NCBI GenBank assembly: GCA_050331735.1
Contig: JBHJGN010000077.1
Location: 5,062-69,061, forward strand
Direction of reading: 5' to 3'
DNA length: 64,000 nucleotides
Source of the DNA: Cyanophyceae cyanobacterium
Lineage (GTDB): Bacteria; Cyanobacteriota; Cyanobacteriia; Cyanobacteriales; JBHJGN01
The notes under the pieces were generated by a model, which ran no database searches, had not been told where the DNA came from, and saw only the letters and a list, made by a program, of their open reading frames with translations. The first letter of the stretch is position 1. The number at the start of each line of letters is the position of its first letter. A program made the translations under genes and the position numbers. This document shows positions 9,653-33,329 of this stretch, piece after piece.

Positions 9653-9880
9653 AGCGCCGCAGGCGCGGGGAAAGCAGCGAAGCTGCTGGGAAAGGGGGAA
9701 AGGGGAAGGGGAAAAGGGGTGAATGAATCAGCTTGCTCCTTAGCTCTGTGTTCTTTTCCCGTCGCGAACGCGACAATTTACCCCTTCCCCGTTCTGGAGG
9801 AACAGATTTCCCTTTCCCCTTTTCCCGCCGCGACAGCGGCTTTCCCCTGCGCCTGCGGCGCTTCCCCGTTCCGGAGGGAC
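9641..9880 (+). repeat. Mosaic intergenic repeat R1: GGGGAAA tracts, complementary TTTCCCC tracts and GC-rich 13-14 nt mini-hairpins
   Basis: The left arm is G-rich (gggaaagggggaaaggggaaggggaaaagggg) and the right arm is C-rich. Mini-hairpins are GCGCCGCAGGCGC, GCAGCGAAGCTGC (9674-9686), GTCGCGAACGCGAC (9761-9774), GCCGCGACAGCGGC and GCGCCTGCGGCGC. Related copies lie at 27005, 31631 and 33071. Confidence 0.85.
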
Positions 9881-13214: not shown

Positions 13215-14525
13215 TTACAGAGCTTCTACCAACTTTTCTTGAGATTTCTTGACTTTTGAACACCAGTTTTTGTATCTATGCAAAATTTCTGCGTAGGAAA
13301 CAGTGGACTCATAGAGAGCCTCAAATAGTGGTGGGAAAAAACGTTTGGGAAAGAATCGATGCAGAACTGTAGCGACACGCTCTTTAATAATAAACTCAAT
13401 AAACAATGGTTTAGATAAAGGAAGAGTATTACTACTAAGCTCGCTCGCCGCGTGAGTATCAGCCAAACGGCAAGTCGTAAATTGTTCTAGCACCAGCTTT
13501 AAGTCGTCGGCATATTGATTCAAAAGCTGGTTGAGAACAACCACATCCTCAAGAGCGCAATTGCACCCTTGACCAAGAGCGGGGGATACAGCATGAGCAG
13601 CATCGCCAATGAGTAAGGCGCTATCGGAATAGTGATAGTGGCTACAGCGAATGGTTAACGTAGTGGCAATAGGTCTTTTGAGAAAAGCTGCCGCTTCTGA
13701 TTCAGGCATGAGTTGACCGACTTGGGGAAAATTTTGCTCAAAGAATTGCAGAACTTCTGCTTCGCTCTTAAGAGCAGTGACTCGTTGATCTCCTCTGGGA
13801 AAGCGAATAATCCCGCTCATTGTGCCGTCAGCTTGATGCAGCAGAATGACTCCGATGCTGCCATCTAATCTCCAGGCATGAATCTTACTCGGTTCAAGGG
13901 CAATCTGGAGTTTTTCATTGCTCCCAGAGGGCAGGAAAACTGATTTGTAGTCATCAGAAACGTATTTTTGTTCCAATTCAAATAACTTAGTATTTAAAAA
14001 ATGTCTTCTCACAACAGAACGTGCTCCATCTGCTCCCACTAAGAGGTCATAAGCAATAGATAAATATTCTGGTTCTGTTGAGGCTAGATTTTGAAAATTT
14101 GCTGTCTTCGCGTCTAAGTCTATATGGGTACAGGAGCATTGAAAATATAAATTTAAGCGGGAATTGGCAAACTTTTGTAGGGTATTTAATAAGACTTTTG
14201 TAAAGTCAGTGCGATCGAGGGCGAATAAGGGCTTATTTCTGATAACAACTATCTGCTTCCCATTTTGCTGATGAACAATATTCCCCCACATCTCTACACT
14301 GATCGCTAAAACGGCTTCTTCTAAACCTGGTATTTTCCGTAAGGCGTTCATTCCTCTGCCGCTTAAACTAATCGGAAAAGTTCGAGACTTAGAAACGGAT
14401 ACAGTTCTCGGATCGGGGCGACGCTCGTATATATCTATCTGATATTTGTTATCGCGGGCCAGTAAATAGTGAGCGAGAAGAAGGCCGCTTGGTCCGGCAC
14501 CAACAATGACAACTTTTTTAGACAT
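13215..14525 (-). CDS. Class A FAD-dependent monooxygenase (kynurenine 3-monooxygenase/UbiH-like)
   Basis: Start moved to ATG 14525 (MSKKVVIVGAGPSGL dinucleotide fold); the track offers TTG at 14552. FAD fingerprint GDAAHAVSPALGQGCNCALED. Confidence 0.75.
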   Translation of the reverse strand: MSKKVVIVGAGPSGLLLAHYLLARDNKYQIDIYERRPDPRTVSVSKSRTFPISLSGRGMNALRKIPGLEEAVLAISVEMWGNIVHQQNGKQIVVIRNKPLFALDRTDFTKVLLNTLQKFANSRLNLYFQCSCTHIDLDAKTANFQNLASTEPEYLSIAYDLLVGADGARSVVRRHFLNTKLFELEQKYVSDDYKSVFLPSGSNEKLQIALEPSKIHAWRLDGSIGVILLHQADGTMSGIIRFPRGDQRVTALKSEAEVLQFFEQNFPQVGQLMPESEAAAFLKRPIATTLTIRCSHYHYSDSALLIGDAAHAVSPALGQGCNCALEDVVVLNQLLNQYADDLKLVLEQFTTCRLADTHAASELSSNTLPLSKPLFIEFIIKERVATVLHRFFPKRFFPPLFEALYESTVSYAEILHRYKNWCSKVKKSQEKLVEAL

Positions 14526-14565
14526 ATCCAGCGTTTCTAATGGTTTAAGCAAAATATTTTATTGT

Positions 14566-14597
14566 TAGTGGTTAAGCTTGTTTTTAACTAACCACTA
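14566..14597 (-). terminator. Stem-loop TAGTGGTTA-N14-TAACCACTA between the DUF4278 gene and the monooxygenase gene
   Basis: Perfect 9-bp inverted repeat in an AT-rich context, but with no clean U-run. It could be a terminator or a regulatory hairpin. Confidence 0.3.
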
Positions 14598-14706
14598 CCC
14601 CAAGCTCAACTTCTCAAAGTGCAACTAATGAAGTAGATTGGATTTTACTTGGGTTTTCTTGAGTTAGAACAATGTATGTGATTGATTGTCATAAGGTATA
14701 CAGGAT

Positions 14707-14889
14707 TCATGGTAATAATTTGATGTACTCTCTTCCTCGATACTTAAGAGTAAAACCGTTTTTAAGCGTTGCATTCCTCGTCTTTCCAATCTGATAAGAG
14801 ACTCCCCGATACTTGCCATTAATCGTTTTATCGGTTGCTGAGCGGGTTAAGTTAGATTGGTAAGAAATACCGCGATAAATGAGCTGCAT
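14707..14889 (-). CDS. Small DUF4278-type protein
   Basis: Start moved to ATG 14889, preceded by AAGGAGAAAAAG. MQLIYRGISYQ...KYRGVSYQ...KYRGREY has the repeated YRG-x-SY pattern of cyanobacterial DUF4278 proteins. Confidence 0.65.
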   Translation of the reverse strand: MQLIYRGISYQSNLTRSATDKTINGKYRGVSYQIGKTRNATLKNGFTLKYRGREYIKLLP

Positions 14890-14983
14890 CTTTTTCTCCT
14901 TAAATTTTCGTGTTGTTTTTTTAATGGCTACCAAGCGAACTAACTGATGCACTTATAGCTAAAACGATGGCAGGTTAAAGAGT

Positions 14984-17014
14984 TCATCTAAAGGTTGTCG
15001 GAACAGAAACAGTAGACACCCGATTTTGAGCAAAATGTTCTAATAACATGCGGTGATAAAATACATAGCTACCACCCACTTTTTTCATCAACAGTCGTTC
15101 TGAGGCGTAGTCAAGAAAGTGAGCTAGATTCCTAGGAATTAAACCCTTAGCCCATAATATAAGTCGTAGGTTGACGTGTTGAATGCAGGCCATTCCGCCT
15201 CCAAAAAGTAGCCCTAAAATCAGTCCCCAACTGATTACAGAAGTGATTGACTTTAATCCTTTAGGAAATAAACTAATCGGAAAAGGAAACAAAATGATTG
15301 GGATCAAAATTAGCCAACTAGCTAATGCGACGATCGCGGCATTCGTGACCGATTTCCGAATACCTTGGTTAGGGATAGTTTTTGTCTCTATTTCTGAGCC
15401 TCTTAGCCCACGGATTAATCCGATAATTAGTCCTAAAATTACTCCTAAAAATAGTCCAAATACTATTATTGTTAAGCCATTGCTTGGCTCTTTCCAAGTC
15501 AGGTAACACCACACTACACTAATCGGGGACAAAATTCGACTCCAGCTTAGTCCATCCCTTAAACCATTAAGCAGATCTTTTCGCGTTTTTTTCCAAGGCC
15601 ACGTCAAAGTTTCAAAGGTTTTTATTTCTGCTTTATCGCTTCCAAACCATAACAAAACAAGTCCCCATGTTACTCCGTTGATCGCTAATACTTTAAAAAG
15701 GTTAATTTTTTCGTTATGCAAGTCTAAAACATAGCCTAGTAACAAGATTAATAGAACAACCAGCATCCCCATCAGTATACTTCCCACTCGATAAAGTCTT
15801 CTTTGGAGATTAGGCTCCAACCAATAGGGCTGCATTCTCTCAATTAAAAAGACAGATTGAGCTCCCTGAGACATCCGCTGTGCCAGCCAAGTTAGCCAGT
15901 ATATTGACCTATCTTTCTGGTATTGCTGAACTCCTTTACGCTTGAACATCCGATCAATATAAGTATCGAACAGGTGATGACGGCGTTCTTCACTTGAGCA
16001 AAACTGCTGTAATAGATCTTCTACTGACCAATCTTGATAAGCAACACTCATAATACTGAGAATTAGAGGAGTTTGGGCAAAACGTTCTAATTCTCGATCT
16101 TGCTGTAATAGCGTTCTTAAGCCAGCGAGGGAATCACCTGCTTCTGCTAAAAAACGATCTACTTGTTTTTTTGAAAGAGGTTTAATACAGATAGCACTGC
16201 TAAGTTGCAAACGCGCTGTCAGTGCCTCATAATCCTCGACTCGGCTACAAATCACCATCTCAGTAATATTATGAGTTGTGATAAATTGATTTAAAGCTCT
16301 AACGCAAGCGTTGCGCTTTCCAGCTTGTACTTCATCTAATCCATCAAGAAATAGAATTAGCTGTTCCTGTTCAATCCAAGGTTCGCTTAGCGTTTTGGGA
16401 ACTTGATATTTATCTTTTAGTTCTTCAATTAGCCATTTTTCTATGGGTTGCTGCTTGTATTCCCAAGAAGATAAGTTAAACACTACGGGGATAGGCTTCG
16501 TTAAATCTTTTTCGGTTTGAGCGATCGCTTTTTTGGCTAGCTGTAATAAAGCAATCGTTTTTCCTGAACCAGGCTCTCCTAAAATTAATAGGGTTTTACC
16601 TTGTCCGGTTTGATTCAAAATATCTGTTGATTTAAGTTGGTCAAAAGACTTATCCAAGTCTATTGCTATATCTTCAACGCCTGTAAAAGGTCTAATTACC
16701 GCACTTGAATTTTTTTCCCAGTCGAGGTTAATGACATTATTTCTATAGAGAGAAGAGTTGAGAAAACCCTCGATCCAAGACTCTTTAACTTTGCGCAATA
16801 AGGTGATTCGCTGTCTATATTCGTGTTGAGTTAATACTTGGCGCACTACTGGAGTTTGACCTAACCAGTCCAGATCATTCGTGACGCGATCGCGATATTG
16901 CTCGCGACTGAGAATGGTAATGTTGTGATTGTGAACAGTGTTATTGTCACCAACCGCAAAGCCTTTTGCTGAAGCTTCAAACCTTTGATTGTATTTAGCA
17001 CTACGTTCAACCAT
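14984..17014 (-). CDS. NACHT-family STAND NTPase (NLR-like) with N-terminal short signalling motif and about 6 transmembrane helices
   Basis: Start moved to ATG 17014 (MVERSAKYN) with GGAG 8 nt upstream. Walker A LILGEPGSGKT, Walker B LILFLDGLDE. Hydrophobic helices span ORF residues ~417-620. C-terminal YVFYHRMLLEHFAQ resembles the NACHT-associated YxFxHxxxQEYFAA helix. No TPR/WD40/LRR repeats. Confidence 0.8.
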   Translation of the reverse strand: MVERSAKYNQRFEASAKGFAVGDNNTVHNHNITILSREQYRDRVTNDLDWLGQTPVVRQVLTQHEYRQRITLLRKVKESWIEGFLNSSLYRNNVINLDWEKNSSAVIRPFTGVEDIAIDLDKSFDQLKSTDILNQTGQGKTLLILGEPGSGKTIALLQLAKKAIAQTEKDLTKPIPVVFNLSSWEYKQQPIEKWLIEELKDKYQVPKTLSEPWIEQEQLILFLDGLDEVQAGKRNACVRALNQFITTHNITEMVICSRVEDYEALTARLQLSSAICIKPLSKKQVDRFLAEAGDSLAGLRTLLQQDRELERFAQTPLILSIMSVAYQDWSVEDLLQQFCSSEERRHHLFDTYIDRMFKRKGVQQYQKDRSIYWLTWLAQRMSQGAQSVFLIERMQPYWLEPNLQRRLYRVGSILMGMLVVLLILLLGYVLDLHNEKINLFKVLAINGVTWGLVLLWFGSDKAEIKTFETLTWPWKKTRKDLLNGLRDGLSWSRILSPISVVWCYLTWKEPSNGLTIIVFGLFLGVILGLIIGLIRGLRGSEIETKTIPNQGIRKSVTNAAIVALASWLILIPIILFPFPISLFPKGLKSITSVISWGLILGLLFGGGMACIQHVNLRLILWAKGLIPRNLAHFLDYASERLLMKKVGGSYVFYHRMLLEHFAQNRVSTVSVPTTFR

Positions 17015-17030
17015 TTTAAGTCTCCAGCAG

Positions 17031-17402
17031 CTAAGAGCCAAATGTATTTGTTTGAGTGTTGCGATCGCCGAATTGACCCCCTTTAACTTCCCCTTGAAAC
17101 AGCATGTTATATTTACCTGCTGCTGTTTCTTTAGGATCTAACTGTTTTAGTATTTCCTGAGCTTTTTCAACAATTTTCTCGTCTCGATCGGCACCAACCT
17201 CAGTTAATTTCTTTTTGAGTGGAGCTTCATAGGTGTCAGGGTCTTTTTCGTATTCTTCTAAAACCATTTCTGCTTTTGGTTCGCCATCAAATTTATGCTT
17301 AATTAAAGTTTTTAAGCCTTGATAAGCATCTGGAGCAACATCTCTAGCCGCTTTTACTGCTCCAGCAACCAGTGCAGCAAGAATTAAAGAAATTGGTTCC
17401 AT
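17031..17402 (-). CDS. Small Bell-like protein with N-terminal hydrophobic helix and C-terminal amyloid-signalling-type motif
   Basis: 123 aa with a GAGGA RBS. The N-terminus MEPISLILAALVAGAVKAARDVAPDAYQGLKTL is followed by a charged helical middle. The last ~26 aa (GKYNMLFQGEVKGGQFGDRNTQTNTF) match the N-terminus of the next gene. Confidence 0.6.
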   Translation of the reverse strand: MEPISLILAALVAGAVKAARDVAPDAYQGLKTLIKHKFDGEPKAEMVLEEYEKDPDTYEAPLKKKLTEVGADRDEKIVEKAQEILKQLDPKETAAGKYNMLFQGEVKGGQFGDRNTQTNTFGS

Positions 17403-17584
17403 TACTCATTATTCCTCTGTTAGTTCAATTTTTGGAGTTGAATTATTCGCTAGATTCAACCCGAACGATAATTTTAAATCTGCAACAAATTTAAAGAAGT
17501 AAAGGAATAGGAGGTTTTCTGATTTAATTACACGCCATATCTGCTATCTGCGTTTAATATTAATTTGATTCTTTATCCCTCGAT

Positions 17585-17640
17585 CTCATAAAGCTCATTC
17601 CGAAGCTCTTGAGAAATCTCATCTAAAAACTCATAGAAAA
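17585..17640 (-). promoter_or_regulatory. CTCAT (ATGAG on the coding strand) array, copy 1, upstream of the Bell/NACHT pair
   Basis: CTCAT at 17585, 17594, 17618 and 17630 (spacings 9, 24, 12). The block AATCTCATCTAAAAACTCATAGAAAAG is nearly identical to one at 24929-24951. Confidence 0.4.
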
Positions 17641-17647
17641 GTTGGTC

Positions 17648-20600
17648 TTAAACAAAGATCGATTTATAAATGCGGTTCTGAACTTTTAAAGTTCCCTGTT
17701 GCTTAACGACTAGCCCCGATAACAGCAGTTCTCTTTCCTCGGGGCTATTATCTGAAACTATTGCACCTCGGTGTAAAATTTGTCGATAGAGTTCTAGTAG
17801 TCGGACGGACTGTTTGCTCTTGAGCAGGCGATCGCGGATCGTTCTCAAATGCTCGGGTTCATCCTGATATTCCCAATTCTCGACGATCTTGGTTCGCACC
17901 AAGTTTTCGAGCCACTCGGCTTCTTGGTTAGCAGGGATTGAAGAGGAAGCATCGCGGATAAGTTTGCAGAGCTTTTGGGTTAAAAAGGGCTGTCCGTTCG
18001 TCCAGGCAAACACTTCTTTGAGCAGCGTTTGTGGATTATTCACTTTGTCCATTAATCCTTGCAGCAACGGTTGCGCTTCATGCTGTTTAAAGCCCTCTAG
18101 TTGAATCGCCTGACCGATGTTAAAGGGGGTTCTTTGATAGTCGGTTGCTAAATCGCTCGGAGTAGCGACACCAAAAAAAGCAAAGGTTAGGCGTCGATAC
18201 TCTGGATCGATACTGCGCTGATTGTAGCAGGAGCGTATCAGCGCCAAAAAGTCATTAACGGGAAAATTCAGGCTTAAGAGGCTATCAAGTTCATCGATAA
18301 AAATAACTAGATTGGGAAGAGCATTATCTTGGCACTCGACTTCAACTAACAAAATTTCTCGAATAAACTGACTCAATTTTTGTACTGGAGAAAGATCTTC
18401 TTGCTCTCGCCACCAGGTTTTTAAATCGACTGTCCTCAGCAAACCAAAGCCATACCATAGCTCTACGGCTAATCCCTTATACCATTGTTCGGGCGTAACG
18501 CTTTCGCTGCCAATCCGAGTCAGATCGATCGCTCCGCAGCTAAACCCTTCGTGCTGGAGGTGACGCATCATGCGCACCATCAAGCTTGACTTGCCCATCT
18601 GCCGAGGATTGAGAACATGACAAAACTCTCCTCGTTTTAACGCTTTATAAAGACAGCGATCCGCCGAGCGTACCACATAAGTCGGGGCATCCATCGGCAA
18701 ACTTCCCCCCACTTGATAGTCAAACTCAGAGGATTGTTCGGCACTTCTGAGCAGTTCATTTTCAAACATGAGTTCTGCTTGAGTCGCTTGGAGAATTTCC
18801 AAGGTTTGCGATAGCTCTTGAGTGCGTTCTGAAACTCGTTGTTCGAGGGTGCGATTGTAGCCTGCTAGCTGTTTGTAGAGACGGGCATTTTCGATAGAGA
18901 TAGCGGCTTGAGCGGAAAGAATCTTTAAAACTTCTACGCGATCGCTAGTAAAGGCACCGCTGGTTAAATTATTTTCTAAATAGAGAATCCCGATCAGTTG
19001 ATCTTGATGAAGCAAAGGAGTACAAAGAATCGATTTGGGGTGAGTCGCCACTATGTAAGGATCGCCGCTAAACTGTTTTGCCTCAGTCGCGTTGTTTAGC
19101 ACAACGTTTTTGTGGGTGCGGGCAACATAGTGAACGATGGCAACGGATAGAATTGGTGCTTGGCAATCGTCTACAGAGTCAATGGCAATTGATTGCAGAA
19201 CAGCCACCTCATCAGCCTCTACTGCTCCTCCCGCTTCAATTGTTAAGTGATCCTCGTTTGCTAGAATCAGAAAGCTTTTTTGAGCGCCAGCATTCTCAAT
19301 GACAGTTTTCATCAAATTTTTGAGCAATTGGCTCAGCGCGATCTCCCGCGAAATTGTCTGCGAAGCTTTGATAACGCTGGCTACATCTAATCCTGCCTGG
19401 GTCAAGGTTGAAGATAAGCGGTTGGTCGATTCTGAGGCTAAATGTGGGTATCGTTGCTCTAGGTGCTTCACCTTGGCGTGTGCGCCCCATCTTTGGTAGG
19501 CATAATGAGCATCCTGTATGTAGTGGCGAGCAACATGATTCTCCTGAGCTAGGTAAAATTGACCAGCCAGTTCGCAGGCAAGAGCTTCTTCATTAAGATA
19601 GTTGTTTTCCTGAGCCAGCATAATAGCCTGGTCATACTGCTCTCGGGCTTCTTGAACTTGCCCCAACACTCGGCAACGTTCTGCCTCGACTAAATGAAGC
19701 TTGTGTAAAAAATTCATGGGAGCACTTCGCGCCCACGTTCGTATCTGCTTTTGATTACTGGCTACTTTTGCTAAAATTTGTTTCTGTTCAACGGCTAAAG
19801 ACTGAGGGTAGACCGCCAGTCGTGCTAAAGAGTCATAAAAGTAGAAGAGGGGACAAAGCAGCGTTCCTGTAGAGGTGTCTACATAGGGTTCAGCACAAAC
19901 AGCATTTTCAAACGCTTCCTGATACTGATTAAACAGGTAGCAGAGAATTAGTTTGTTGAGATACAGATAGTAAATAGTTGAGCGTTGATTTCTTTGCACA
20001 TAGAGAGGAAGTTCCTGTTCTTCGTTATAAACCTCCCCGACTAGACGGTAGGGTTCGTCTTCTCCAATCAGGTTCAGAACAATTTGATGGATCAGAGTGT
20101 CGTTTCTGAGCTGATTAATGGTACTGCTATAGGTAGTGATTTCCTGCTCTAATTCAGGTAGGGGACGAGCAGCGCTGAAATAGGAAAGATAACAATAGAT
20201 TTGGATAGATAGAGCGGCATGTTCAAGATCTCCCGTGGCTAAACCACTGTGATAGGCAGCTAATAAGGCGCTAAACGTCTGGCTAATGTGGAATTTCCCA
20301 GGAATTGTAAAATAGGTGGTCACAAAGAGGGTCATCGCTTTGAGTTCTTTCGCGTTTAACCGCTCTAACAGACGCAAAGCAAGCTGACCGAATTGGTAGC
20401 CAAGCTCAAAGTTTGCGGCTCTACAGAGAATCAATCCGTAATTCGCATAGGCATGGGTATGAGCAACAGCGTTGCCATAGTGAAGAGCCAAATTAATTTG
20501 GGCAAAGATAATGAGCGGCAACAGGTGAGGACGGGCTATATAGGCGGCAGGGCAGAGAGTGAGTAGGATACGGGTAGCGGCAATTTTGGTCGGATCGCTC

Positions 20601-23269
20601 ATCAAAGGCGCATCCAGTAAGTCTTGAGGCTGTTTTTGTGCCAAGGATTGTTGCAGCGTCTCGAACCCCAAGCTCACGTCAGATTCAGAAGGCTGCGTCG
20701 GTAAATTCACGCCGAGGATTTTCAGCACCGAGATGCCAAGCTGGAGGGCTTCGGTAAATTTTTTCTGGGCTTTGAGCGCTTGGATTTCGATTTCGTGAAC
20801 TTTCACCTGCTCTAAGTCAGATTGAGCCTGTTGCCGTACCGCCTGAACTAACTGCTCCATCCGCCTAAAATCGTGGTTGAGATAGGCTGCCTCTGCGGCG
20901 GCGGTGTGTAGAGCTAGCGATAGGTCGTATTGCTGCCAGTTTGCTTCAAGTAGTTCTAAGCCGACGGTAAAGTAGGTGAAGGCAGATTGATGGGCGGCTG
21001 ATGCTTTCGCGATCGCTCCTGCCTGGAGATTTAAGCGGGCGAGTTGCTCTCGCTCTGGACGGTGGGAGAGCAGTGACCGTCCCTGGTTGAGCTGATTAAC
21101 AATCGTAAAGGGGTCCGATTCTAGGGGGGTGTGTTTGAGCAACCGTTGACCAATCTGCCAATGCACAGCCTGGGTTTCTGCCTGGGGAATGAGGCCATAG
21201 ACCACCTGCTGGATGCGATCGTGGGCAAACTTGTATCCGGCTGATTTTGATAAACCGTTTACCTCCAGCGACCTTAGCGTGTAGCTGTCGTTCAGGGGTA
21301 GAATATATCCCTCGGCGATCGCTGCCTCTAAATCTACTGCTACTTCCCGAGCCGTTTTTTCAGAGATAATCGCTAATCGGTCTAAAGTAAATCGGTTCCC
21401 CAGGCAGGCGGCTAATTTCAACGCGGCCTGAGTTGGTGGCGTTAGCTGTTTGACCTTCTCCGCCATCAATTGGGCGACATTATCCGCAATCGGCTGGGTT
21501 TGAATCTGCTTCAAATCCCACCGCCATTGCCCTCGTTCGTCATCAAATTCGATCAGCGATCGCTCGTGTAGAGATTTCAAAAACTCGCTGACAAAAAAAG
21601 GATTGCCCCCCGTTTTTGCCTGTAACATCGTTGCCAGCGGACTGGCGGTGGTGGAGTCAACCCGAAAAGTATCGCTGAGCAGTTGGCGAGTATGGGTTTG
21701 GGTTAGGGGCAACAGCGAAATTTGATTAACGGTGATAGAAGACTCGATTTCCCTTAAAGTGAGCAGGAGCGAACTCTCGCTTACTTCGTTGTCTCGATAG
21801 GCTCCAATCAGCAGCAAGTATTGGCTATTTCCAGCCGTGAATAACCGTTGAATAATTTCAAGCGTGGCTCGATCTGCCCACTGCAAATCGTCTAAGAAGA
21901 TGACGAGGGGATGTTCCGGTTGAGTAAAAACTTTAACAAAATCTTGCCATACCCGATGAAAACGATTTTGCGCCTCTGTCGGCGCAAGGTTTGGGAGGGC
22001 TGCTTGGGAACCGATAATCAATTCTAAGTCGGGCAGAACATCGAGCATCACCTGTCCATTTGCCCCCAAAGCCACCAACAGTTTTTCCCGCCATTCTGCA
22101 ATCTTGGGTTTACTTTCAGTCAGTAGCTGTTGGATTAATGACTGAAACGCTTGAATTAGGGGAGCATAGGGAATGTTGCGCTGTAGCCGCTCAGATTTCC
22201 CAGAGATAAAGTAGCCTCGCTGACGGGTCAGGGGCTGATACACCTCCTGCACCAGAGCGGATTTACCCACCCCTGAATGTCCGCAAATCACCATCATTTC
22301 GCTAGCGCCTTGGCTCACGCGATCGCAGGCAGCTAATAAGCGAGCCAACTCTGCTTCTCTTCCGTAGAGCTTTGGGGAAATTTGAAACCGATCGGAAATA
22401 TCCACTTGACCTAATGGAAAGGAAGCAATTTGCCCTTGGGTTTGCCACTGATGCCAACAGTGTTCCAAATCTGCCTTGAGTCCAAAAGCCGATTGATAGC
22501 GATCTTCGGCGTTTTTGGCCATCAGCTTGAGCACAATGTCTGAAATTGCCGGGGGAAGGTTGGCATTATGTTGATGGGGAGGAAGCGGAGATTTGGCAAT
22601 ATGGCCGTGAATTAATTCCAGAACATCCTCTGTAGGAAAGGGCAACCGACCAGTGAGCAGTTCATAAAAGGTTACCCCGAGAGAGTAAAAATCCGTTCGC
22701 TCATCGATTGCCCGATTCATCCGCCCCGTCTGCTCTGGGGAAATATACGTTAATGTTCCCCTTAATACCTTTGGATGACGAGTTGAGTTTTTCGGGGTCA
22801 GTAGGAGCGAGCTACCGAAGTCGATCAGTTTGACCTGCTCAGTCGCGGGACTCCAAACAATATTGGACGGGTTGATATCGTTGTGGACAACGTGCTGTTG
22901 ATGCACTTGGGCAAGAATACGAGCAAGTTGAATGGCAAGCGGGAGAAACTCCGTGACAGAGAGAGGGCGCTCTTCAATCACCCGATCGAGAGCTTGCCCC
23001 CCAAAATCCTCTAAAACCAAGAGCCAGCGGTCCTGCTCATTCTCTAAACCATAGACTTGTACTACCCCTGGCAAGTTAAGTTGATTGAGTTTTTTGGTGG
23101 TTTCATACTCCTGTCTAAACCAAGCAATTTCCTCGGGTGTCGGGTAAGGCTGTTTGAGAAATTTGAGAATGACGGGTTGACAATCTGCTAATCGTCGTCC
23201 GCGATAGACTTGCGAGCTAGCGCTTTCGTGAAGCTGTTCGATAATTTGGTAGTCTAAAACACAAATCAC
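17648..23269 (-). CDS. Multidomain signalling NTPase: Ser/Thr protein kinase + AAA_16-type STAND ATPase + TPR-like helical array + GAF + coiled coil + C-terminal AAA-like (AAA_35-type) NTPase
   Basis: GTG start with GGAG 6 nt upstream. Kinase motifs [18 protein letters not shown] (aa ~6-270). P-loop GHSGVGKS with [12 protein letters not shown]. Long helical repeat region. GAF ([19 protein letters not shown]...ILYLENN...ISIENARLY). Coiled coil. Last 359 aa: [34 protein letters not shown]. Confidence 0.8.
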
Positions 23270-23287
23270 GACGCTCTCCGTTTGCTT

Positions 23288-24817
23288 CTAGAACCAGGTC
23301 AGATGTCTAGGCTGCCGTTGTTGCCGTTCAGCAGATCGCTTTTGCAGTGCTTCTACCAAGGCTTTCTCACTTGTGTCTTCTGGGGAGGGACCGTACAAAA
23401 TCCCGACAACCTTTTTCATCTTCTCCACGTCGTAGTGATGTTCGCCATGTTCGTGTTCGTGACTAGGACCAGCCCAAGGGGAATCGGTGTGAACCCACTG
23501 CCCTTTCTCGAACCAATCTACGCCTTGAATAACCGTCTTCACCACCTCACCGGGATGAGCCGCTTCATGGGCGCTGAACCAGTCATTGATGCGGTCATCC
23601 ACCCAGCCGTGCAGCCGCCAGAACACCGGGTTGACGTGAGAGGAATAGAACTCGCCCAAAAAATCGTATTCGGGGCGATCCCAAAAGTCACGGATGTCGT
23701 TGTCTTCCCGTCCAGATGGCAGTACGCCGAGCGCGGGATGATAGGGGGCTGATGTCCAACGCATGTGCATATCGTTATGAACCGAGTACTCAAGCAGTGC
23801 ACCAAGTTCTCCGAGCGAGAGGGTACTGAGGTACTGTTTGTTCTTAAACTCCCGGTCCCACCACGCCATCCGCGACCAGTAGTGTCCGTCTGTCTTTAAT
23901 AGAGCAATGCGGCGGTTGGTGATTTCGTCGGTCGGATCGATCCAGGCTGGAGGAATAGCAAATCCGTCTGGGTTGCCGGGGGTGGGGAGAACTGGCGGGT
24001 CTTCCTCGTAGTCTGGTTCGGCTCCCACAGAACCGGGACGGGGAATCGTCGGCCATCCGGCGATCGGCTCCTGTCCAGCTTCCTTGATCTTGCGATTCAC
24101 TTCTTGAATCATCTGTCGGTGCATGAAGAGAAAGTCCTCACCGGAGCCATTGCGAATTAGGGGAGCACCTGTCGCATCGACTGACGGACGTTCTTCTTCG
24201 CCGCCTGGTTGCCATCCAAGTTCTCGAATTGCCTGTTTTTTCTCTTCGTTGATCATCGGATTAAGCCACAATCCGCGCACACTGTGCCAAACGGTATGGT
24301 GGAGCCGATGGTGTTTCGATGCCAGCATCTTGAGAACTTCCTGTGGAAGCGGAATGACCGTTCTTGGCTCAGGGAAATCCCGTTGAACAGCAACGAAAGA
24401 GGCTACTACGCCAGCCGGACTATCCTCGCCATGCTCCACAGTTCGGATTACCGTTCCTACCAACGCAGGTCGCTGATTCTTTCCGTTCGGCCACTCAGGG
24501 ACAAAATAGGCGACGTAATCGTACACCCACCCCTGGGCAAATGTTCCCAACACGCCAGTCCCTTGAAATCTTAGGGAAAATGGGTTGCCTGTCTGGAGCG
24601 AGCCTTGGAGTGAGAGTCGGGCGTCATTCATCTTCGGCGGGTCACTCCTAAAGGCAAGCTGTCCGCGAATCGTCCCAGGCTCGGCAGCCGCCTCAAATAC
24701 CATCTCACCTTCCCCAAAGATGAGGTTTTTGAGCTTGTCACAATCATCGCTGACTGGCTCAGTAATGTTGTTATAGCTGCGGTAGGTCCAAGCCCCGCTC
24801 AGAAATTCGTTGGTCAT
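23288..24817 (-). CDS. Divergent tyrosinase-like (type-3 copper-like) protein with N-terminal beta-rich domain
   Basis: FLFMHRQMIQEV resembles FLPWHRxxLxxFE. HNDMHMRW resembles HNxVHxWxGG. NPVFWRLHGWVDDRI resembles DPxFWLHHAxVDRLW. There is also a His cluster, HHRLHHTVWH. The canonical CuA His at -9 is missing and the CuB spacing is longer than usual. No signal peptide. Confidence 0.4.
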   Translation of the reverse strand: MTNEFLSGAWTYRSYNNITEPVSDDCDKLKNLIFGEGEMVFEAAAEPGTIRGQLAFRSDPPKMNDARLSLQGSLQTGNPFSLRFQGTGVLGTFAQGWVYDYVAYFVPEWPNGKNQRPALVGTVIRTVEHGEDSPAGVVASFVAVQRDFPEPRTVIPLPQEVLKMLASKHHRLHHTVWHSVRGLWLNPMINEEKKQAIRELGWQPGGEEERPSVDATGAPLIRNGSGEDFLFMHRQMIQEVNRKIKEAGQEPIAGWPTIPRPGSVGAEPDYEEDPPVLPTPGNPDGFAIPPAWIDPTDEITNRRIALLKTDGHYWSRMAWWDREFKNKQYLSTLSLGELGALLEYSVHNDMHMRWTSAPYHPALGVLPSGREDNDIRDFWDRPEYDFLGEFYSSHVNPVFWRLHGWVDDRINDWFSAHEAAHPGEVVKTVIQGVDWFEKGQWVHTDSPWAGPSHEHEHGEHHYDVEKMKKVVGILYGPSPEDTSEKALVEALQKRSAERQQRQPRHLTWF

Positions 24818-24930
24818 GATGTTCTCCTTGGTTCGCGGTCGGTTATCAGCTTGCGGCTATATACTCTACAGGCATGAGCATGGCGGCTTTAAGCTGTGCT
24901 TCATAGTATTCTTGCTCTGAGCCTTTTAAT

Positions 24931-24956
24931 CTCATAAAACTCATAGAAAAGCTCAT
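24931..24956 (-). promoter_or_regulatory. CTCAT array, copy 2, upstream of the tyrosinase-like/kinase genes
   Basis: CTCAT at 24931, 24940 and 24952 (spacings 9, 12). AATCTCATAAAACTCATAGAAAAG matches copy 1. Lies 115-140 nt upstream of the ATG at 24817. Confidence 0.4.
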
Positions 24957-24978
24957 AAAAAACTTAGGCGATCGCCCT

Positions 24979-26358
24979 CTAGCTCTCAAAAACCGATGTG
25001 ATGGACAGATGTTGTCCCTTGGTAAAATACTGCCGATACAGTTCGCACCCGGCGATCGCGCGATTGCCGCAAAGTTTAATTAACCCCATACTGCATAGCT
25101 TGTGGGTTTGAATCGGATCTAAGGAAACAGGTTCAGCGGCATTTAGAACCTGATGAAGAGCCTGCATCAACTCAGGCTGTTGTTCTAGGGTGGCCCAATG
25201 ACGCTGCAGGTGATGAGCATATATTCCTGTCGCCGTGAACGCCGTTTTTAGCAGTTGCGATAGCGTTATTTCTCCCCGATTCAGATGATAGAGTGCCAGA
25301 TTCACCAGTGCAGGATGACCCCCGACTAGAGACATCAGTTGCTGGGCTTCTTTGTCATCCGTCCAGTCCAGTCCGTAACGTTGGGCTAGGAGCTGTACTT
25401 CCTCTGGAGTAAAATCCTCTAACTGAATGGGTAGCCCGACATTGAATGGGGATTGGTTACAGTCGAGAGGAACGTAAATTTCTGTTGAGTGAACCACAAT
25501 CAGACGCAGCTTTCGCCAAATCGGTAATCTTTTTGTTTCTTCGTACCACGACCGCAACAGCGGTAAAAAATCCTGCGCCACCTGCGGATGCTCGAAAATC
25601 TGGTTCACTTCATCTAGCGCCAAGACGAGGGGAGCGTCGATTGACTCTAATAAATAGTCTCGAAAGTAAAGGGTGCAGCTCAGATTACTGCCCAAATCTT
25701 TGTCCCAATACTCGTCTAGCATCGGTTTAAGCTCAAGCTGGCGAGAGATACTCGTACACAGCCAGCGCAAAAATTGATTCAAATTACCCAAAATTGATTG
25801 CTCGACTTGCTCTAGGTTCAGGCTGACGGTATGGTATCCCAGGTGAGAGGCGTAGTTAAGGCTCCTCAGCAGCAGTGAGGTTTTCCCCATTTCTCTCGGA
25901 GCCTTAATCCGAATTAACGCTCCTGATTTTCTCACTTCTCGCTCGACTTGTTCCTTAACAGAAGAGCGTTCGAGGTAAAAGGGAGAGTCAAGCGGAACTG
26001 AGCCGCTGGGGTAGCAAGGTGACGGATCCTGGTTGACATGGGGGAACGCTTCCGCCAGAGGTGACCTTAAAGGTCTTGTTTGAGGGTCGGGTCTGGTGGT
26101 GACGTAAGACTCCAGTAATCCCCGACAGTTCTTTTTGGTCACGCGCTGACCGACGACCTTAGAAAGTCGCTGATACAGCTCTGGGGCAGCAACGTTGGTA
26201 AAGTAGCCAGGACTATAGCCTGCCTCGATTGCAATCTGGTTGTAGGTTTTATACTGCCAAATACCCTGTAGGATCAGCATTTCTGCGGGATTGAGGGGTC
26301 GATTTTGGCTCTCAATGAGCTGGCGGTCAACAATTTTACAGAGATTATCTAAATTCAT
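24979..26358 (-). CDS. AAA-like (AAA_35-type) NTPase with N-terminal HTH-like module of the type labelled vWA-MoxR-associated N-terminal domain
   Basis: The N-terminus LNPAEMLILQGIWQYKTYNQIAIEAGYSPGYFTNVAAPELYQRLSKVVGQRVTKKNCRGLLE fits a cyanobacterial N-terminal module I recall. Then YPSGSVPLDSPFYLER, Walker A REMGKTSLL and Walker B LVLALDEVN. This part is paralogous to the C-terminal 359 aa of the 1873-aa protein. Confidence 0.7.
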   Translation of the reverse strand: MNLDNLCKIVDRQLIESQNRPLNPAEMLILQGIWQYKTYNQIAIEAGYSPGYFTNVAAPELYQRLSKVVGQRVTKKNCRGLLESYVTTRPDPQTRPLRSPLAEAFPHVNQDPSPCYPSGSVPLDSPFYLERSSVKEQVEREVRKSGALIRIKAPREMGKTSLLLRSLNYASHLGYHTVSLNLEQVEQSILGNLNQFLRWLCTSISRQLELKPMLDEYWDKDLGSNLSCTLYFRDYLLESIDAPLVLALDEVNQIFEHPQVAQDFLPLLRSWYEETKRLPIWRKLRLIVVHSTEIYVPLDCNQSPFNVGLPIQLEDFTPEEVQLLAQRYGLDWTDDKEAQQLMSLVGGHPALVNLALYHLNRGEITLSQLLKTAFTATGIYAHHLQRHWATLEQQPELMQALHQVLNAAEPVSLDPIQTHKLCSMGLIKLCGNRAIAGCELYRQYFTKGQHLSITSVFES

Positions 26359-26466
26359 AAGCCAATCTCCATCGAGTTTTACAGAGCGTTTCAGACTATG
26401 TAATTGAGCTGGCAGCTCCGGCGGAACGTTGAGCGTCGAGAAGAGGGCAAACTAACTGCTAATTAG

Positions 26467-26622
26467 CTAATACCATTTACCGAAAGTAGTCAGATAGTTC
26501 CCAAACTAACCAACAATTGGAGGTTCAAGGGGAAAGAGCTGCTGTGCTTCCCTTTCCCCTTGACCCCTTCCCCTTTCCCCCAACTCATCAAGTCTCCTAT
26601 TACTTTTTCTAATTGGTATAAG
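26467..26622. mobile_element. MITE-like element, copy A (~156 bp)
   Basis: Terminal inverted repeats CTAATACCATTTACCGAAAGTAGT ... ATTACTTTTTCTAATTGGTATAAG. Internal GGGGAAAG/CTTTCCCC hairpin core. Two more copies lie at 43991 and 44197. No coding capacity. Confidence 0.75.
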
Positions 26623-26738
26623 ATGCCCGCTCATTTTTGTTCCATTGCGTCCTCCTTATTGTCTACTGATTTGAGTTTTACTTCTGTCTTCTGGTTTATC
26701 TTTATTGATTAATCATTGACACAGTTTTTGCTAGAGGT

Positions 26739-27004
26739 GTGCTCATGTGGTCTCTTAAAGCTTCGCGCCAGGGATTAACCCAAATCAAACGAGCGATCGC
26801 CTTCACGCCAAATGGGCAAGTGCTAGCCAGCAGCAGCACCGATGGAACGATCCGACCCTGGGATATGAAAATCGGACAAACTGTGAAGCGGCTGCGCCCG
26901 CCAAGACCCTATGAGGGGATAAATATTGCTGACGTTGGGGGTTAACGGCAGCCCAGGAAAACGCCCTGATTGCCCTAGGAGCAACTCGATCTAGGGGCAA
27001 TTAA
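26739..27004 (+). pseudogene. Collapsed remnant of a WD40-repeat STAND/signalling gene
   Basis: The 68-aa ORF joins an N-terminal SLKASRQGLTQIKRA motif to one WD40 blade (IAFTPNGQVLASSSTDGTIRPWD) and the usual C-terminal tail RPYEGINIADVGG. The rest of the tail (GLTAAQENALIALGA) continues in the +1 frame. Confidence 0.55.
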
Positions 27005-27162
27005 GGGATGGGGAAATGTCCGGTGCGGAACGGGGAAAGGGAAAAATATTGCTGTGCGACGGCAAAGAAATACAGGGTCAAGGAGCAAACTGATTGATGT
27101 CTCCCTTTCCCCCTTACCCTTACCCTTTTCCCTTTTCCCGCAGCTTCGCTGCTTCCCGGTCC
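27005..27162 (-). repeat. Mosaic GGGGAAA/mini-hairpin repeat R2
   Basis: Contains GTCCGGTGCGGAAC, the exact reverse complement of the R3 hairpin at 31775. Also has C-rich tracts and GCAGCTTCGCTGC (27140-27152). Overlaps the 3' end of the AllC-like ORF. Confidence 0.85.
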
Positions 27163-28391
27163 AACTTCAATAAAGTCAGCAGTAGAACGTTAGCCCCCTG
27201 GGTACACTGTTCGGGGGAGGTATATTCGCTTTTGTCGTGGGAAACTCCTTGCTCGCTGGGAACAAAGATCATGCCCATGTCGGTAATCAGAGCCATTTCT
27301 TGAGCATCGTGACTGGCGCGACTGGGTAGATGGGTATAGCTCAAATTTAGCTCTTGGCAGCTCTGGGCGATCGCCTCTTGCAAGCTGGGTTCGGCTAGGG
27401 CGGGTTCGTTGTGCAGACAGGGATGGAGGCGAATTTGGGTATGGGTGGCGACGGCAATTTCTTCGAGGTGAACGCGCAACTGATCCAGCAGGCGATCGAT
27501 ATGCAGACTAGATAGGTCGCGGATGTCTAAGCTCATTTCTACCCAACCGGGAACGACATTTGCCGCATTAGGCCGAACATTCATTTGACCGACTGTGGCG
27601 ACCTGCTGCCCCGGAGTATGGGCAATTTGGTTGACGGCTAAAACAACCTGCGCCGCAGCCACTAAAGCATCGCAGCGCATCTGCATTGGGGTTGTCCCAG
27701 CGTGGTTTGCCCGACCTCGAACGGTAATCGTAAAGCGTCGTTGTCCGACAATCCCTTCCACAACGCCAATTTGTTTGCCCATCGTTTCCAGGACTGGTCC
27801 CTGCTCAACATGCAGTTCGACGAAAGCGGCGATCTCTTGAGCACTCCGGCGAGCGTGAGGAATCTGGTTCCAGCGACCGCCAACTCTTTCTAAACAGGTA
27901 TAAATATCAGTGCCGTCGGGACGGCGGTAGTAGCCCGGATCGTTAACCACTCTGCCAGAAATGGCTTTAGAACCAATCATGCTGCCTTCTTCGTCGGTAA
28001 AGACGATCACTTCTACAGACCGATTGAGCACAATTTGCTGTTCTTGAAGTACGCGCACCACTTCTAGTCCGGCCAAGACTCCGTAGGCTCCATCGTAGTG
28101 ACCGCCGCAGGGAACGGTGTCGATGTGAGACCCGGTTGCCCAAGCGGGGGCATCGGGAGATTTTCCAGGATATCTACCAATAATATTGCCTGCTGCATCA
28201 ATGCGGACCTGCATGTGGGCTTCGTGCATCCAGTGCTGAATCAAACGGCGGGCTTCAACATCTTCGCTGCTGTAGGCAATCCGCTTCACGCCGCCATCGG
28301 GCAGTTGACCAATTTGAGCCAGACGAGCAATGCTGTGATTGAGGCGATCGCCATTCACTAATACCTGTTCTTTGTTTGGGCTAATAGTCAT
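27120..28391 (-). CDS. allC: Allantoate amidohydrolase / M20-family carbamoyl-amidohydrolase
   Basis: GSHIDTVPCGGHYDG, FVELHVEQGPVLE, GIVGQRRFTITVRGRANHAGTTPM and SRASHDAQ are collinear with AllC as I recall it. The last 11 codons (EAAKLREKGKG) are encoded by repeat R2. Confidence 0.75.
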   Translation of the reverse strand: MTISPNKEQVLVNGDRLNHSIARLAQIGQLPDGGVKRIAYSSEDVEARRLIQHWMHEAHMQVRIDAAGNIIGRYPGKSPDAPAWATGSHIDTVPCGGHYDGAYGVLAGLEVVRVLQEQQIVLNRSVEVIVFTDEEGSMIGSKAISGRVVNDPGYYRRPDGTDIYTCLERVGGRWNQIPHARRSAQEIAAFVELHVEQGPVLETMGKQIGVVEGIVGQRRFTITVRGRANHAGTTPMQMRCDALVAAAQVVLAVNQIAHTPGQQVATVGQMNVRPNAANVVPGWVEMSLDIRDLSSLHIDRLLDQLRVHLEEIAVATHTQIRLHPCLHNEPALAEPSLQEAIAQSCQELNLSYTHLPSRASHDAQEMALITDMGMIFVPSEQGVSHDKSEYTSPEQCTQGANVLLLTLLKLDREAAKLREKGKG

Positions 28392-33070: not shown

Positions 33071-33329
33071 GTCCCTGCGGGACGGGAAAACTGTCGCTTT
33101 GCGACGGGGAAAGGGGAAATTGTCCCTGACGGGACGGGGAAGGGGTAAGGGGAAAACTGTTCCTCCGGAACGGGGAAAGGGGTAAGGGGAAAGGGGCAAG
33201 GAAAATTTGTCCAGTGCGGGACGAGGGAAAAACGCAGGGTCTCAGGAACTAGCTATCAGTCCTTCCTTTTCCCCTTCCCCTTTACCCTTTACCCCAGCAG
33301 CTTCGCTGCTTTGCCCGCGCCGTCGGTGC
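33071..33329 (-). repeat. Mosaic GGGGAAA/mini-hairpin repeat R4 (longest copy)
   Basis: Five GTCC/GTCG-type mini-hairpins alternate with GGGGAAAGGGG tracts, followed by a C-rich arm and GCAGCTTCGCTGC (33297-33309). Fills the whole gap between two minus-strand genes. Confidence 0.85.

Follow-up and report, generated by a model that had tools for sequence, protein, structure and literature searches.

Do seven genes that lie back to back on one strand, and that encode NTPases, a kinase-like domain, a putative cell-death protein and two oxidases, make up a single system, or have separately inherited parts come to lie behind one another? The question is raised by positions 13215-26358 of a 64,000-nucleotide (nt) stretch of contig JBHJGN010000077.1 (Cyanophyceae cyanobacterium, assembly GCA_050331735.1), which as a whole is called the window here. 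A preliminary description had proposed that the seven minus-strand genes, inserted among genes of purine catabolism, form one composite conflict or immunity system. The open reading frames (ORFs) and their translations do fill 13215-26358 back to back, and nearly all of the domain calls made at that stage were upheld by profile searches against Pfam, NCBIfam and PDB. The unity of the block was not supported. Judged from sequence comparisons, it consists of at least two separately inherited units, one built around a pair of AAA_35 NTPases (g1 and g3) and the other a Bell/NACHT pair (g4 and g5). The features of the block, in minus-strand order, are the following.

24979..26358, minus strand: g1, helix-turn-helix (HTH)-AAA_35 NTPase
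24898..24973, minus strand: ATGAG array 1, from sequence, pattern statistics and nhmmer
23288..24817, minus strand: g2, PvdP-family protein of 509 aa, a putative type-3 copper oxidase (tyrosinase), from NCBIfam and PDB matches
17648..23269, minus strand: g3, kinase-like/AAA_16/helical region/GAF/AAA_35 protein of 1873 aa, from Pfam matches
17552..17627, minus strand: ATGAG array 2, from sequence and nhmmer
17031..17402, minus strand: g4, putative Bell-type helical membrane-targeting domain
14984..17014, minus strand: g5, NACHT NTPase with a multi-transmembrane (TM) C-terminus
14707..14952, minus strand: g6, small DUF4278 protein
13215..14552, minus strand: g7, class-A flavin monooxygenase (VioC/KMO-like aromatic hydroxylase), from Pfam and NCBIfam matches

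Base composition divides the block. The guanine-plus-cytosine (GC) fraction is 0.38-0.42 in g4-g7 (about 0.39 in g4-g5) and 0.48-0.55 in g1-g3, the entire window standing at 0.495. An AT-rich stretch carrying HIP1 sites had been described against a background of about 55% GC; the low GC and the HIP1 sites within it were both found, but the actual background is about 50%. A consensus promoter and terminator scan gave counts not above those of shuffled sequence, and operons were not defined by it.

The AAA_35 pair

The AAA_35 module (PF14516) of g1 is recognized by Pfam at E 1.6e-151 (504 bits against a cut-off of 27), with APREMGKT as Walker A and LALDE as Walker B. The C-terminus of g3 carries a second such module (4.3e-33, 115 bits against the same cut-off); the two are paralogous (28% identity, E 1e-19), and the GKT/GKS and DE motifs are present in both. 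The N-terminus of g1, kept across orthologues, is predicted to form a three-helix HTH that resembles LuxR and sigma region 4 and is of the Pfam HTH_VMAP-M9 type; a full-length orthologue that is 71% identical, in locus L087 (loci retrieved for comparison carry L numbers), has PF26355 HTH_VMAP-M9 at this position. An AlphaFold2 (AF2) model places the helices at residues 24-34, 39-45 and 52-69 with low confidence (predicted local distance difference test, pLDDT, about 59), and the best Foldseek matches of the modelled HTH, the NarL/VraR DNA-binding domains and SigD region 4, are non-significant. A profile search of the g1 N-terminus against PDB sequences gave no match.

In g3, Pfam recognizes Pkinase (3.5e-35, 122 bits), AAA_16 (1.1e-45) and GAF (1.3e-13) domains ahead of AAA_35, while the TPR repeats earlier assigned to this protein had no Pfam match at E<=0.01. 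The kinase-like domain (residues 1-290; 22400-23269) retains the VILK lysine, the catalytic Asp and DFG; it has HNDINPSN instead of HRDxKxxN and no glycine-rich loop. These departures are those of the family, in which the catalytic-loop consensus is HKDINPSN and the P-loop is glycine-less in 9/9 aligned orthologues. The family is large: more than 120 full-length cyanobacterial homologues share the g3 architecture, at about 1900-2070 aa and with or without a PAS domain.

We collected g3-type loci by a metagenome scan anchored on the GAF and AAA_35 end of g3 and by tblastn with all seven proteins. Loci were de-duplicated at 90% identity before counting, so that several metagenome loci representing one population were collapsed, and adjacency was counted over the 30 de-duplicated loci whose flanks each reached 2 kb or more. 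A g1-like gene lies within 2.5 kb of the g3-type gene in 13/30 of these independent loci and anywhere in the locus in 17/30. Its position varies, for it may precede the large gene, follow it on the same strand, or be convergent; in two Nostocales loci (L169 and L171) g1 lies 160-175 nt downstream of the large gene. Proteins that lack the kinase but terminate in a g3-type AAA_35 module likewise have g1-like genes immediately upstream, and one Armatimonadota locus has a g1-type gene next to a g3d-type gene. The identities of the two partners track each other (neighbour-g1 against anchor-g3 identity, Spearman 0.81, n=23), which argues that g1 and g3 have been inherited together. From their sequences, g1 and g3 are thus read as a conserved pair that is widespread in cyanobacteria. 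In L156 (1303-14728) and in L158, up to four tandem kinase-less genes ending in the g3-type AAA_35 module follow one g1-like gene.

These counts bear on the simplest alternative, namely that the neighbours are coincidental and that the block is a variable genomic island of unrelated multi-copy genes (AAA_35, NACHT, DUF4278) in which only g4-g5 is a functional unit. AAA_35 is indeed a very large family (8217 representatives at 50% clustering, E<=1e-3), NACHT and DUF4278 genes are multi-copy too, the block lies between purine-catabolism genes, and a degraded WD40 remnant with repeats sits at its edge. Random placement of 30 paralogues in a 7-Mb genome would, however, bring about an adjacency estimated at only some 2%, against the 43% observed within 2.5 kb and the correlation of 0.81. 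Together with the specificity of the arrays and the recurrent position of the tyrosinase described below, these values make coincidence very improbable.

A promoter-like array

Both internal intergenic regions contain the same element, of about 80 nt, which on the coding strand reads as a T-rich run containing three to five ATGAG boxes at a spacing of 12/12/9 nt and an end of the form ATGAGTTTTATGAG[A/T]TT. The pattern is matched 4 times where 0.17 matches are expected, and nhmmer scores are of the order of 1e-13 (1.3e-13 for array 1 and 3.5e-13 for array 2). Array 1 begins 6 nt past the g1 stop and ends 81 nt ahead of the g2 ATG, with boxes starting at 24956, 24944 and 24935 (spacing 12 and 9 nt) and the hexamer TACTAT at 24908-24903. 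Array 2 begins about 20 nt past the g3 stop and ends 150 nt ahead of the g4 ATG, with boxes starting at 17634, 17622, 17598 and 17589 and TAATAT at 17562-17557. A TAnnAT hexamer follows the last box by 22 nt in both window copies and by about 22 nt in other loci. We thus read the array as a promoter- or operator-like element; the distance between box and hexamer suggests an activator-dependent promoter in which the last box would occupy the -35 region.

Array 1 was aligned with 10 instances from other loci, and an nhmmer model of 11 copies was run on all 2.69 Mb of fetched sequence. Matches at E<1e-5 are confined to g1/g3 loci and include copies outside the training set in L095 (two), L096 and L171; neither the 80 tyrosinase loci nor the NACHT loci gave any. 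Arrays always point toward the next gene. In the window they precede g2-g3 and g4-g5; elsewhere the genes behind them are Amidohydro_2 operons leading to the large gene, an amine oxidase gene, g1 itself, a sigma-70-type gene (L087) and a TP_methylase-TPR operon (L171). In L134, as in the window, an array directly follows the stop of the large gene (16 nt). L092 (9478-16202) has two arrays after its g1 orthologue, one before a gene for a ferric-reductase-like TM protein and a WD40 gene, the other before a phage-tail-like contractile cluster (sheath, gp19-type tube, T4-type baseplate).

Presence of the array follows the type of HTH borne by g1. Of 8 independent loci in which the g1 HTH shares 72% identity or more with that of the window, 7 have arrays, the helix AGYSPGYFTNVVAPEL being nearly invariant. 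Arrays are absent where a g1-clade AAA_35 (67-69% identical) bears an unrelated XRE-type HTH (L003, L085/86, L127 and L130) and where HTH identity has fallen to 32-53%. The swapped XRE-type domains map to L003:2476-2695, L085:16825-17043, L127:2284-2502 and 3865-4083, and L130:13318-13536, and in L127 a different tandem repeat (CTGACTT…) stands upstream of both g1-clade copies. When loci with a different HTH type were searched for tandem operators, a few candidates emerged (L127, L113 and L088) and nothing systematic. Such tracking is expected if g1 recognizes the array, and shared ancestry could give the same pattern. The restriction of the array to g1/g3 loci and its correlation with HTH type also speak against a chance assembly of the block. 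The tandem ATGAG operator corresponds to no described site that we know of. Literature searches on AAA_35, PF14516 and TIGR03903 returned nothing usable, PF14516 being mentioned in no paper of the library searched, and as far as could be found the g1/g3 pair and its array are undescribed. The pair nevertheless agrees with the overall pattern of NTPase-gated regulators whose neighbours vary.

Oxidases and variable cargo

The gene directly behind array 1, g2, has no Pfam match, the Pfam Tyrosinase model included. It matches NCBIfam NF051454 (PvdP tyrosinase) at 2.8e-91, with 306.6 bits against a 625-bit cut-off, and the PDB entries of PvdP (6EYS/6RRP) at 2.5e-72 over residues 67-453. All 20 homologues aligned keep His174, 178, 233, 347, 351 and 403, and nearly all keep His170, 173 and 394; these histidines would fit a dicopper site, CuA and CuB being assigned from the PvdP alignment. 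By these scores g2 is a homologue of PvdP and not PvdP itself. Its N-terminus has neither an RR motif nor a hydrophobic leader, and the protein is thus probably cytoplasmic.

The g2 stop is separated from the g3 start by 18 nt, and a tyrosinase gene stands immediately upstream of the large gene in three lineages: in the window, in Leptolyngbyaceae SM1_4_3 (L003, about 180 nt), and beside the closest g3 orthologue (L085/L086, 20 nt). This constancy, across lineages that differ in g1 HTH type and in g3 subtype, is a further point against coincidence. The tyrosinase family itself, whose g2 clade ranges over Cyanobacteria, Bacilli, Planctomycetes, Actinobacteria and Nitrososphaerales, is unlinked to the other block genes in 77/80 loci across phyla, including two of the three closest relatives, which suggests that in cyanobacteria the tyrosinase is an occasional, position-constant cargo and not a core component. 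L001 (2160-9743) has the tyrosinase relative that is closest outside the source genome (74% identity); behind it come two subtilisin-type peptidase genes and a ThiF/JAB (Bil-like) set, and not a g3-type gene.

The other oxidase, g7, matches FAD_binding_3 at 6.5e-18 (65.5 bits, cut-off 22), and its best NCBIfam match is VioC (1.3e-55), where 189 bits against a 760-bit cut-off place it below equivalog level. Next to it, g6 is a DUF4278 protein (Pfam 1.6e-12), translation of which probably begins with the ATG at 14889, for a product of 60 aa; aligned with three L085 genes of the DUF4278 family, it displays three Y-R-G-x-x-Y repeats. That DUF4278 might be an oxidase substrate is pure speculation. 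The L085 genes (10-192, 4892-5086 and 18782-18976) are three within 20 kb, where the window has one beside the flavin monooxygenase. L085/L086 bring together a g7-like monooxygenase (39% identity), DUF4278 genes, a tyrosinase, the large protein and a g1-like gene in convergent orientation. In these two independent assemblies the monooxygenase and the tyrosinase are each split into two ORFs (L085:5603-6979 and 8377-9980, and likewise in L086), beside an intact large protein and g1-like gene; the split oxidases could be decaying cargo or two-subunit forms.

The genes that immediately precede g3-type genes nearly always share their direction and are tightly spaced, and they belong to the following families.

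Amidohydro_2: 17 loci
YcaO-ThiF-winged HTH (wHTH) fusion: 10 loci
Protein of about 350 aa of no assigned family: 9 loci
Radical SAM/SPASM protein with a weakly PqqD-like protein: 6 loci
TPR-TPR-small: 4 loci, three of which also have TP_methylase and YcaO
RPE65-type dioxygenase: 3 loci
PvdP-type tyrosinase: three lineages

The joint occurrence of a dicopper oxidase, STAND NTPases and a kinase, singled out earlier as a combination not recognized as described, is real and recurrent; the best reading is that the oxidase is one of many alternative cargoes. These companions resemble enzymes of ribosomally synthesized and post-translationally modified peptides (RiPPs) or of aromatic tailoring, which points to regulated secondary metabolism at least as much as to immunity. 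An alternative is that g1, g3 and their arrays are a pathway-specific regulator, unrelated to immunity and comparable to LAL/MalT-type STAND regulators or to the TOMM kinase/cyclase proteins that lie beside RiPP clusters, of a small secondary-metabolite or pigment cassette (tyrosinase with or without flavin monooxygenase) whose substrate may be a phenolic compound or a DUF4278 peptide rich in Tyr. In its favour, YcaO-ThiF-wHTH, radical SAM/SPASM with PqqD-like, Amidohydro_2, RPE65, amine oxidase and vanadium-haloperoxidase-like genes stand directly upstream of g3-type genes, PvdP, the nearest characterized relative of g2, matures a peptide-derived chromophore, and the DUF4278 protein has its three YRG repeats. 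g3 also matches TIGR03903 (TOMM_kin_cyc) at 5.5e-47, but the 160 bits are far under the cut-off of 705.75 and the match is confined to the AAA_16 region. No conserved precursor-peptide candidate was found among the small ORFs between arrays and cargo genes, and the tyrosinase and monooxygenase are split in both L085/86 assemblies. Arrays precede non-metabolic cargo as well, namely the sigma factor of L087, the phage-tail-like cluster of L092 and the Bell-NACHT genes of the window. A metabolite regulator of this kind is a genuine possibility, though one to which we would give well under even odds.

The Bell/NACHT pair

Downstream of array 2, g4 and g5 are collinear with a 16-nt gap. The product of g4 starts with MEPISLILAALVAGAV, a MEPIS start that precedes a hydrophobic helix; the MEPIS motif is common to the Bell, Hell and Bab cell-death domains (Ibarlosa et al. 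2024, 10.1101/2024.11.07.622273). In a single-sequence AF2 model of low confidence (pLDDT 58.6), residues 6-87 form five helices and the tail is disordered. Searches against PDB with this model (Foldseek) and with the sequence (phmmer) gave no significant match, so that the Bell fold is a prediction from sequence. Against Pfam HetE-N (PF20701) g4 scores E 0.18 and 12.6 bits with a 25-bit cut-off, while its orthologues in L082, L084, L172 and L173 have recorded HetE-N matches.

For g5 we took M10 as the start, which gives 676 aa as in the product on record (P0121); the mechanical ORF extends to 17041. Its NACHT domain (2.1e-10, 41.1 bits against 26.7) has intact Walker A (GEPGSGKT) and Walker B (FLDGLDE) motifs and is followed by five or more hydrophobic segments between residues 415 and 621. 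Repeat domains of the TPR or WD kind were not matched by Pfam. Other members of the NACHT-TM family have CHAT, DUF3365 or zinc-ribbon N-termini in the place where g5 has a short BASS-like motif, KYNQRFEASAKGFAVGDNNTVHN. This motif matches the BASS-like last 25 residues of g4, KYNMLFQGEVKGGQFGDRNTQTN, with a local alignment score of 56 against 18+/-3.6 for shuffles, none of 2000 shuffles reaching it.

The same arrangement recurs in Pleurocapsales LEGE 10410, Crocosphaera UHCC 0190, Snowella and Microcystis wesenbergii, where Bell-like genes (122-137 aa) lie 16-24 nt upstream of NACHT-TM orthologues and the neighbours beyond the pair differ among all four cyanobacterial loci. Three of these four genomes carry another motif type (…ISGGTVQGLTQQNTGTITQNF / …ISGGKVQGFIQENNGTVTQNF), again matched within the pair. 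Within-pair scores are 56, 46 and 86, reached by 0-1 of 2000 shuffles; the type shared by the window and L082 scores only 16-22 against L084, which is background, and 38-60 when window and L082 are crossed. Such partner-specific co-variation is the signature of BASS pairs (Dyrka et al. 2020, 10.1101/2020.01.06.895854). Homologues are found on cyanobacterial plasmids. By these features g4-g5 is a candidate amyloid-signalling pair of the Bell/BASS-NLR type, self-contained and mobile, and an architectural variant in that its receptor is multi-TM. A NACHT-TM orthologue with 77% identity (L083:1-564) has lost its Bell gene, of which the last 13 codons (GDRNTQTNTFSS and the stop) remain upstream in a stop-filled frame.

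The upstream regions of five Bell genes, when aligned, show no conservation past the start codon. As they share nothing, the array appears to belong to the g3 locus, and the pair probably landed behind it. Being low in GC and directly behind array 2, g4-g5 may here be expressed from the promoter of the g1/g3 unit.

With this evidence the initial proposal can be weighed, in which all seven genes are one NTP-dependent conflict system whose NTPases and kinase would sense attack and whose Bell pore-former and two oxidases would be the effectors (quinone- or melanin-type damage, as in phenoloxidase immunity). The three features that had been taken to tie the parts together, namely the paralogous AAA_35 modules, the 18-nt gap and the CTCAT/ATGAG array of the two intergenic regions, are all real. 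The seven genes are co-directional and tightly spaced, and the same array stands ahead of g2-g3 and g4-g5. Other STAND NTPases adjoin g3/g1 loci (NACHT-NCH2 at L134:12965-15268, minus strand; nSTAND1 at L085:17222-18643 and in L086), an array of L092 stands ahead of the phage-tail-like cluster, and DUF4278, flavin monooxygenase, tyrosinase, large protein and g1 are together again in L085/86. Functional linkage is thus supported for the g1-g3 pair, the recurrent tyrosinase and the shared array, which would place g2-g3 and g4-g5 under one kind of control, and on comparing neighbourhoods g1 with g3 and the tyrosinase with g3 do travel together. This does not extend to all seven genes. g4-g5 stands alone in four genomes, and tblastn found none of its homologues in 54 independent g3-type loci; GC breaks inside the block, the tyrosinase family is mostly unlinked, and the commonest cargo is made up of RiPP-like and aromatic-tailoring enzymes, which are not typical effectors. 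Neither NCBIfam nor PADLOC gave a system-level match: PADLOC-DB v2 returned only domain-level matches, to the kinase domains of PD-T4-6 and mad6 for g3 residues 6-280 and a weak NACHT match for g5, and nothing for g1, g2, g4, g6 or g7. At the level of sequence, no known defence system matches the block. One seven-gene conflict system therefore seems to us a distinctly unlikely explanation.

Proposed mechanism

What was observed are the domains, the pairings that recur, the co-varying motifs and where, and how well, the array is conserved. On this basis the reading that we favour, and hold to be somewhat more probable than not, is a mosaic. Unit 1 would be an NTPase-driven transcriptional switch with oxidase cargo, and Unit 2 an amyloid-signalling death pair inserted behind a Unit-1 promoter. 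Unit 1 comprises g1, array 1, g2, g3 and array 2, and probably g6 and g7 as well. In Unit 1, g3 would sense a signal through a GAF ligand, through phosphorylation or both, with AAA_16 and the atypical kinase-like domain taking part, and the AAA_35 modules of g3 and g1 may then assemble in a nucleotide-dependent manner. The oligomeric g1 would bind the tandem ATGAG boxes in the -35 region upstream of the TAnnAT -10 hexamer and thus switch on the variable cargo downstream, consisting of oxidative or peptide-modifying enzymes. Here this cargo would be the cytoplasmic PvdP-type tyrosinase co-transcribed with g3, and elsewhere Amidohydro_2, YcaO, radical SAM or RPE65 proteins. By analogy, Unit 1 may be likened to a two-protein version of the STAND-/LAL-type ATP-dependent activators. 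In Unit 2, the membrane-anchored NACHT protein g5 would oligomerize once activated, its N-terminal motif would template the matching C-terminal motif of g4, and the N-terminal hydrophobic helix of g4 would attack the membrane, leading to regulated cell death or abortive infection in a manner analogous to HET-S/NWD2 or Bab/Agp. DNA binding by g1, its interaction with g3, promoter activity of the arrays, amyloid formation and any physiological role are what we infer.

Several points weigh against this mosaic. First of all, g6 and g7 are low in GC like g4-g5, which blurs the boundary of the insertion, and seven co-directional genes are compatible with read-through transcription of all of them. 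Second, the structure models of g1 and g4 are of low confidence (pLDDT about 59 in both) and their fold matches non-significant, and phosphotransfer by g3 is uncertain because the catalytic-loop lysine and the glycine loop are absent. Third, 13/30 loci have no g1-like gene in range, so that the pairing is frequent and not universal. Fourth, L169 has the HTH type of the window yet no array on its 11.8-kb contig, and the two other tyrosinase-bearing loci, where the HTH is different, have no array either. Finally, the array might be a general promoter element, the scan having covered the 2.69 Mb of fetched loci, and its correlation with the HTH is no proof of recognition because both follow phylogeny.

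Comparison with known systems

g4-g5 resembles the Bell/BASS-NLR pairs (Dyrka et al. 2020, 10.1101/2020.01.06.895854) and the Bab/Agp abortive-infection pair of E. coli (Ibarlosa et al. 2024, 10.1101/2024.11.07.622273) in its small helical protein with a MEPIS hydrophobic helix. It further shares with them a C-terminal motif of about 25 residues that is repeated at the N-terminus of the partner, collinear genes (here with the 16-nt gap), co-variation across species and occurrence in cyanobacteria. It differs in the receptor, which in Bell/BASS-NLR systems combines NB-ARC or NACHT with TPR or WD repeats and in Agp is TPR-GreA/B-C-PIN, whereas g5 is NACHT with a multi-TM C-terminus. The motif is only BASS-like and not placed in BASS1-11, and amyloid and defence roles are putative here. 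The NACHT core and TM region place g5 in a cyanobacterial NACHT-multiTM family (45-77% identity) with N-terminal CHAT, DUF3365 or zinc-ribbon domains; in g5, unlike in that family, a short amyloid-type motif replaces the N-terminal effector, and the effector would be a separate gene, g4.

With PvdP, the tyrosinase of pyoverdine maturation in Pseudomonas, g2 shares homology over residues 67-453 and conserved histidines that would fit a dicopper site, but it falls below the equivalog cut-off, lacks an export signal and lies outside a siderophore cluster. MalT, AfsR and the LAL regulators are STAND- or LAL-type ATP-dependent transcription activators. With these and with TIGR03903, g1/g3 have in common a large P-loop NTPase, helical repeats, a sensor domain, coupling to an HTH and neighbours of the secondary-metabolite type. 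The HTH (g1) and the sensing NTPase (g3) are, on the other hand, on two proteins, each with AAA_35, and unlike the TIGR03903 fusion g3 has no cyclase and scores far below the cut-off.

The NTP-dependent conflict systems of Kaur, Burroughs, Iyer and Aravind (2020, PMC7159879) are similar in their NTPase 'thresholding' modules, in the variable effector or cargo genes next to them and in their enrichment in filamentous or aggregating cyanobacteria, and it is from VMAP proteins that the HTH type of g1 takes its name. Unlike the vWA-MoxR-VMAP ternary system, the seven genes and their flanks contain no vWA, MoxR, VMAP-C or GAP1, so that only the HTH type is common to both, and the cargo here is largely of biosynthetic type. 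Tyrosinase is absent from the main text of that paper.

Flanking sequences

The purine and urate genes described on both sides of the block were confirmed by NCBIfam matches above curated cut-offs (8-oxoguanine deaminase, allantoate amidohydrolase, xanthine permease, HpxO and OHCU decarboxylase). At the right edge, a collapsed WD40-STAND remnant and a miniature inverted-repeat transposable element (MITE) had been proposed. Of the former, a single WD40-repeat remnant was found, and in place of the MITE there are only G-rich direct and inverted repeats.

26739..26945, plus strand: single WD40-repeat remnant between G-rich repeats, with WD40-type matches of 3.8e-07 to 4e-05, under cut-offs

This remnant is outside both functional units. 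The repeats around it (26300-27200) are of the GGGGAAAGGG type, with direct copies at 26549 and 27102 and inverted pairs. Just past the urate genes, two minus-strand ORFs (32349-33062, 237 aa; 33329-35473, 714 aa) have no NCBIfam match, the shorter also having no significant Pfam match, and an Rfam scan of 12-28 kb gave nothing relevant.

Implications

The block shows that co-directional, NTPase-rich stretches of cyanobacterial genomes can be mosaics, and synteny should thus be dissected before such a stretch is called a system. g4-g5, if it acts as proposed, carries amyloid signalling beyond NLRs with repeats to NACHT receptors embedded in the membrane, and the multi-TM character of the receptor suggests that the signal is sensed at the membrane. 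More speculatively, and unlikely as we take it to be, the g1/g3 AAA_35 pair may represent an undescribed class of NTPase-gated switches with an ATGAG operator, which would place exchangeable cargo under a single danger- or signal-sensing controller, including oxidases, RiPP-type enzymes, a phage-tail-like injection system and, here, the Bell/NACHT death module. If this were true, a phenoloxidase-like enzyme would be coupled by regulation to an NLR death pathway, a bacterial parallel to melanization and cell death in animals. For the AAA_35 family itself, which has thousands of members and, as far as could be found, no described function, the pattern of an HTH partner, a sensor partner and a tandem operator before swappable enzyme cassettes offers a testable model for one large branch.

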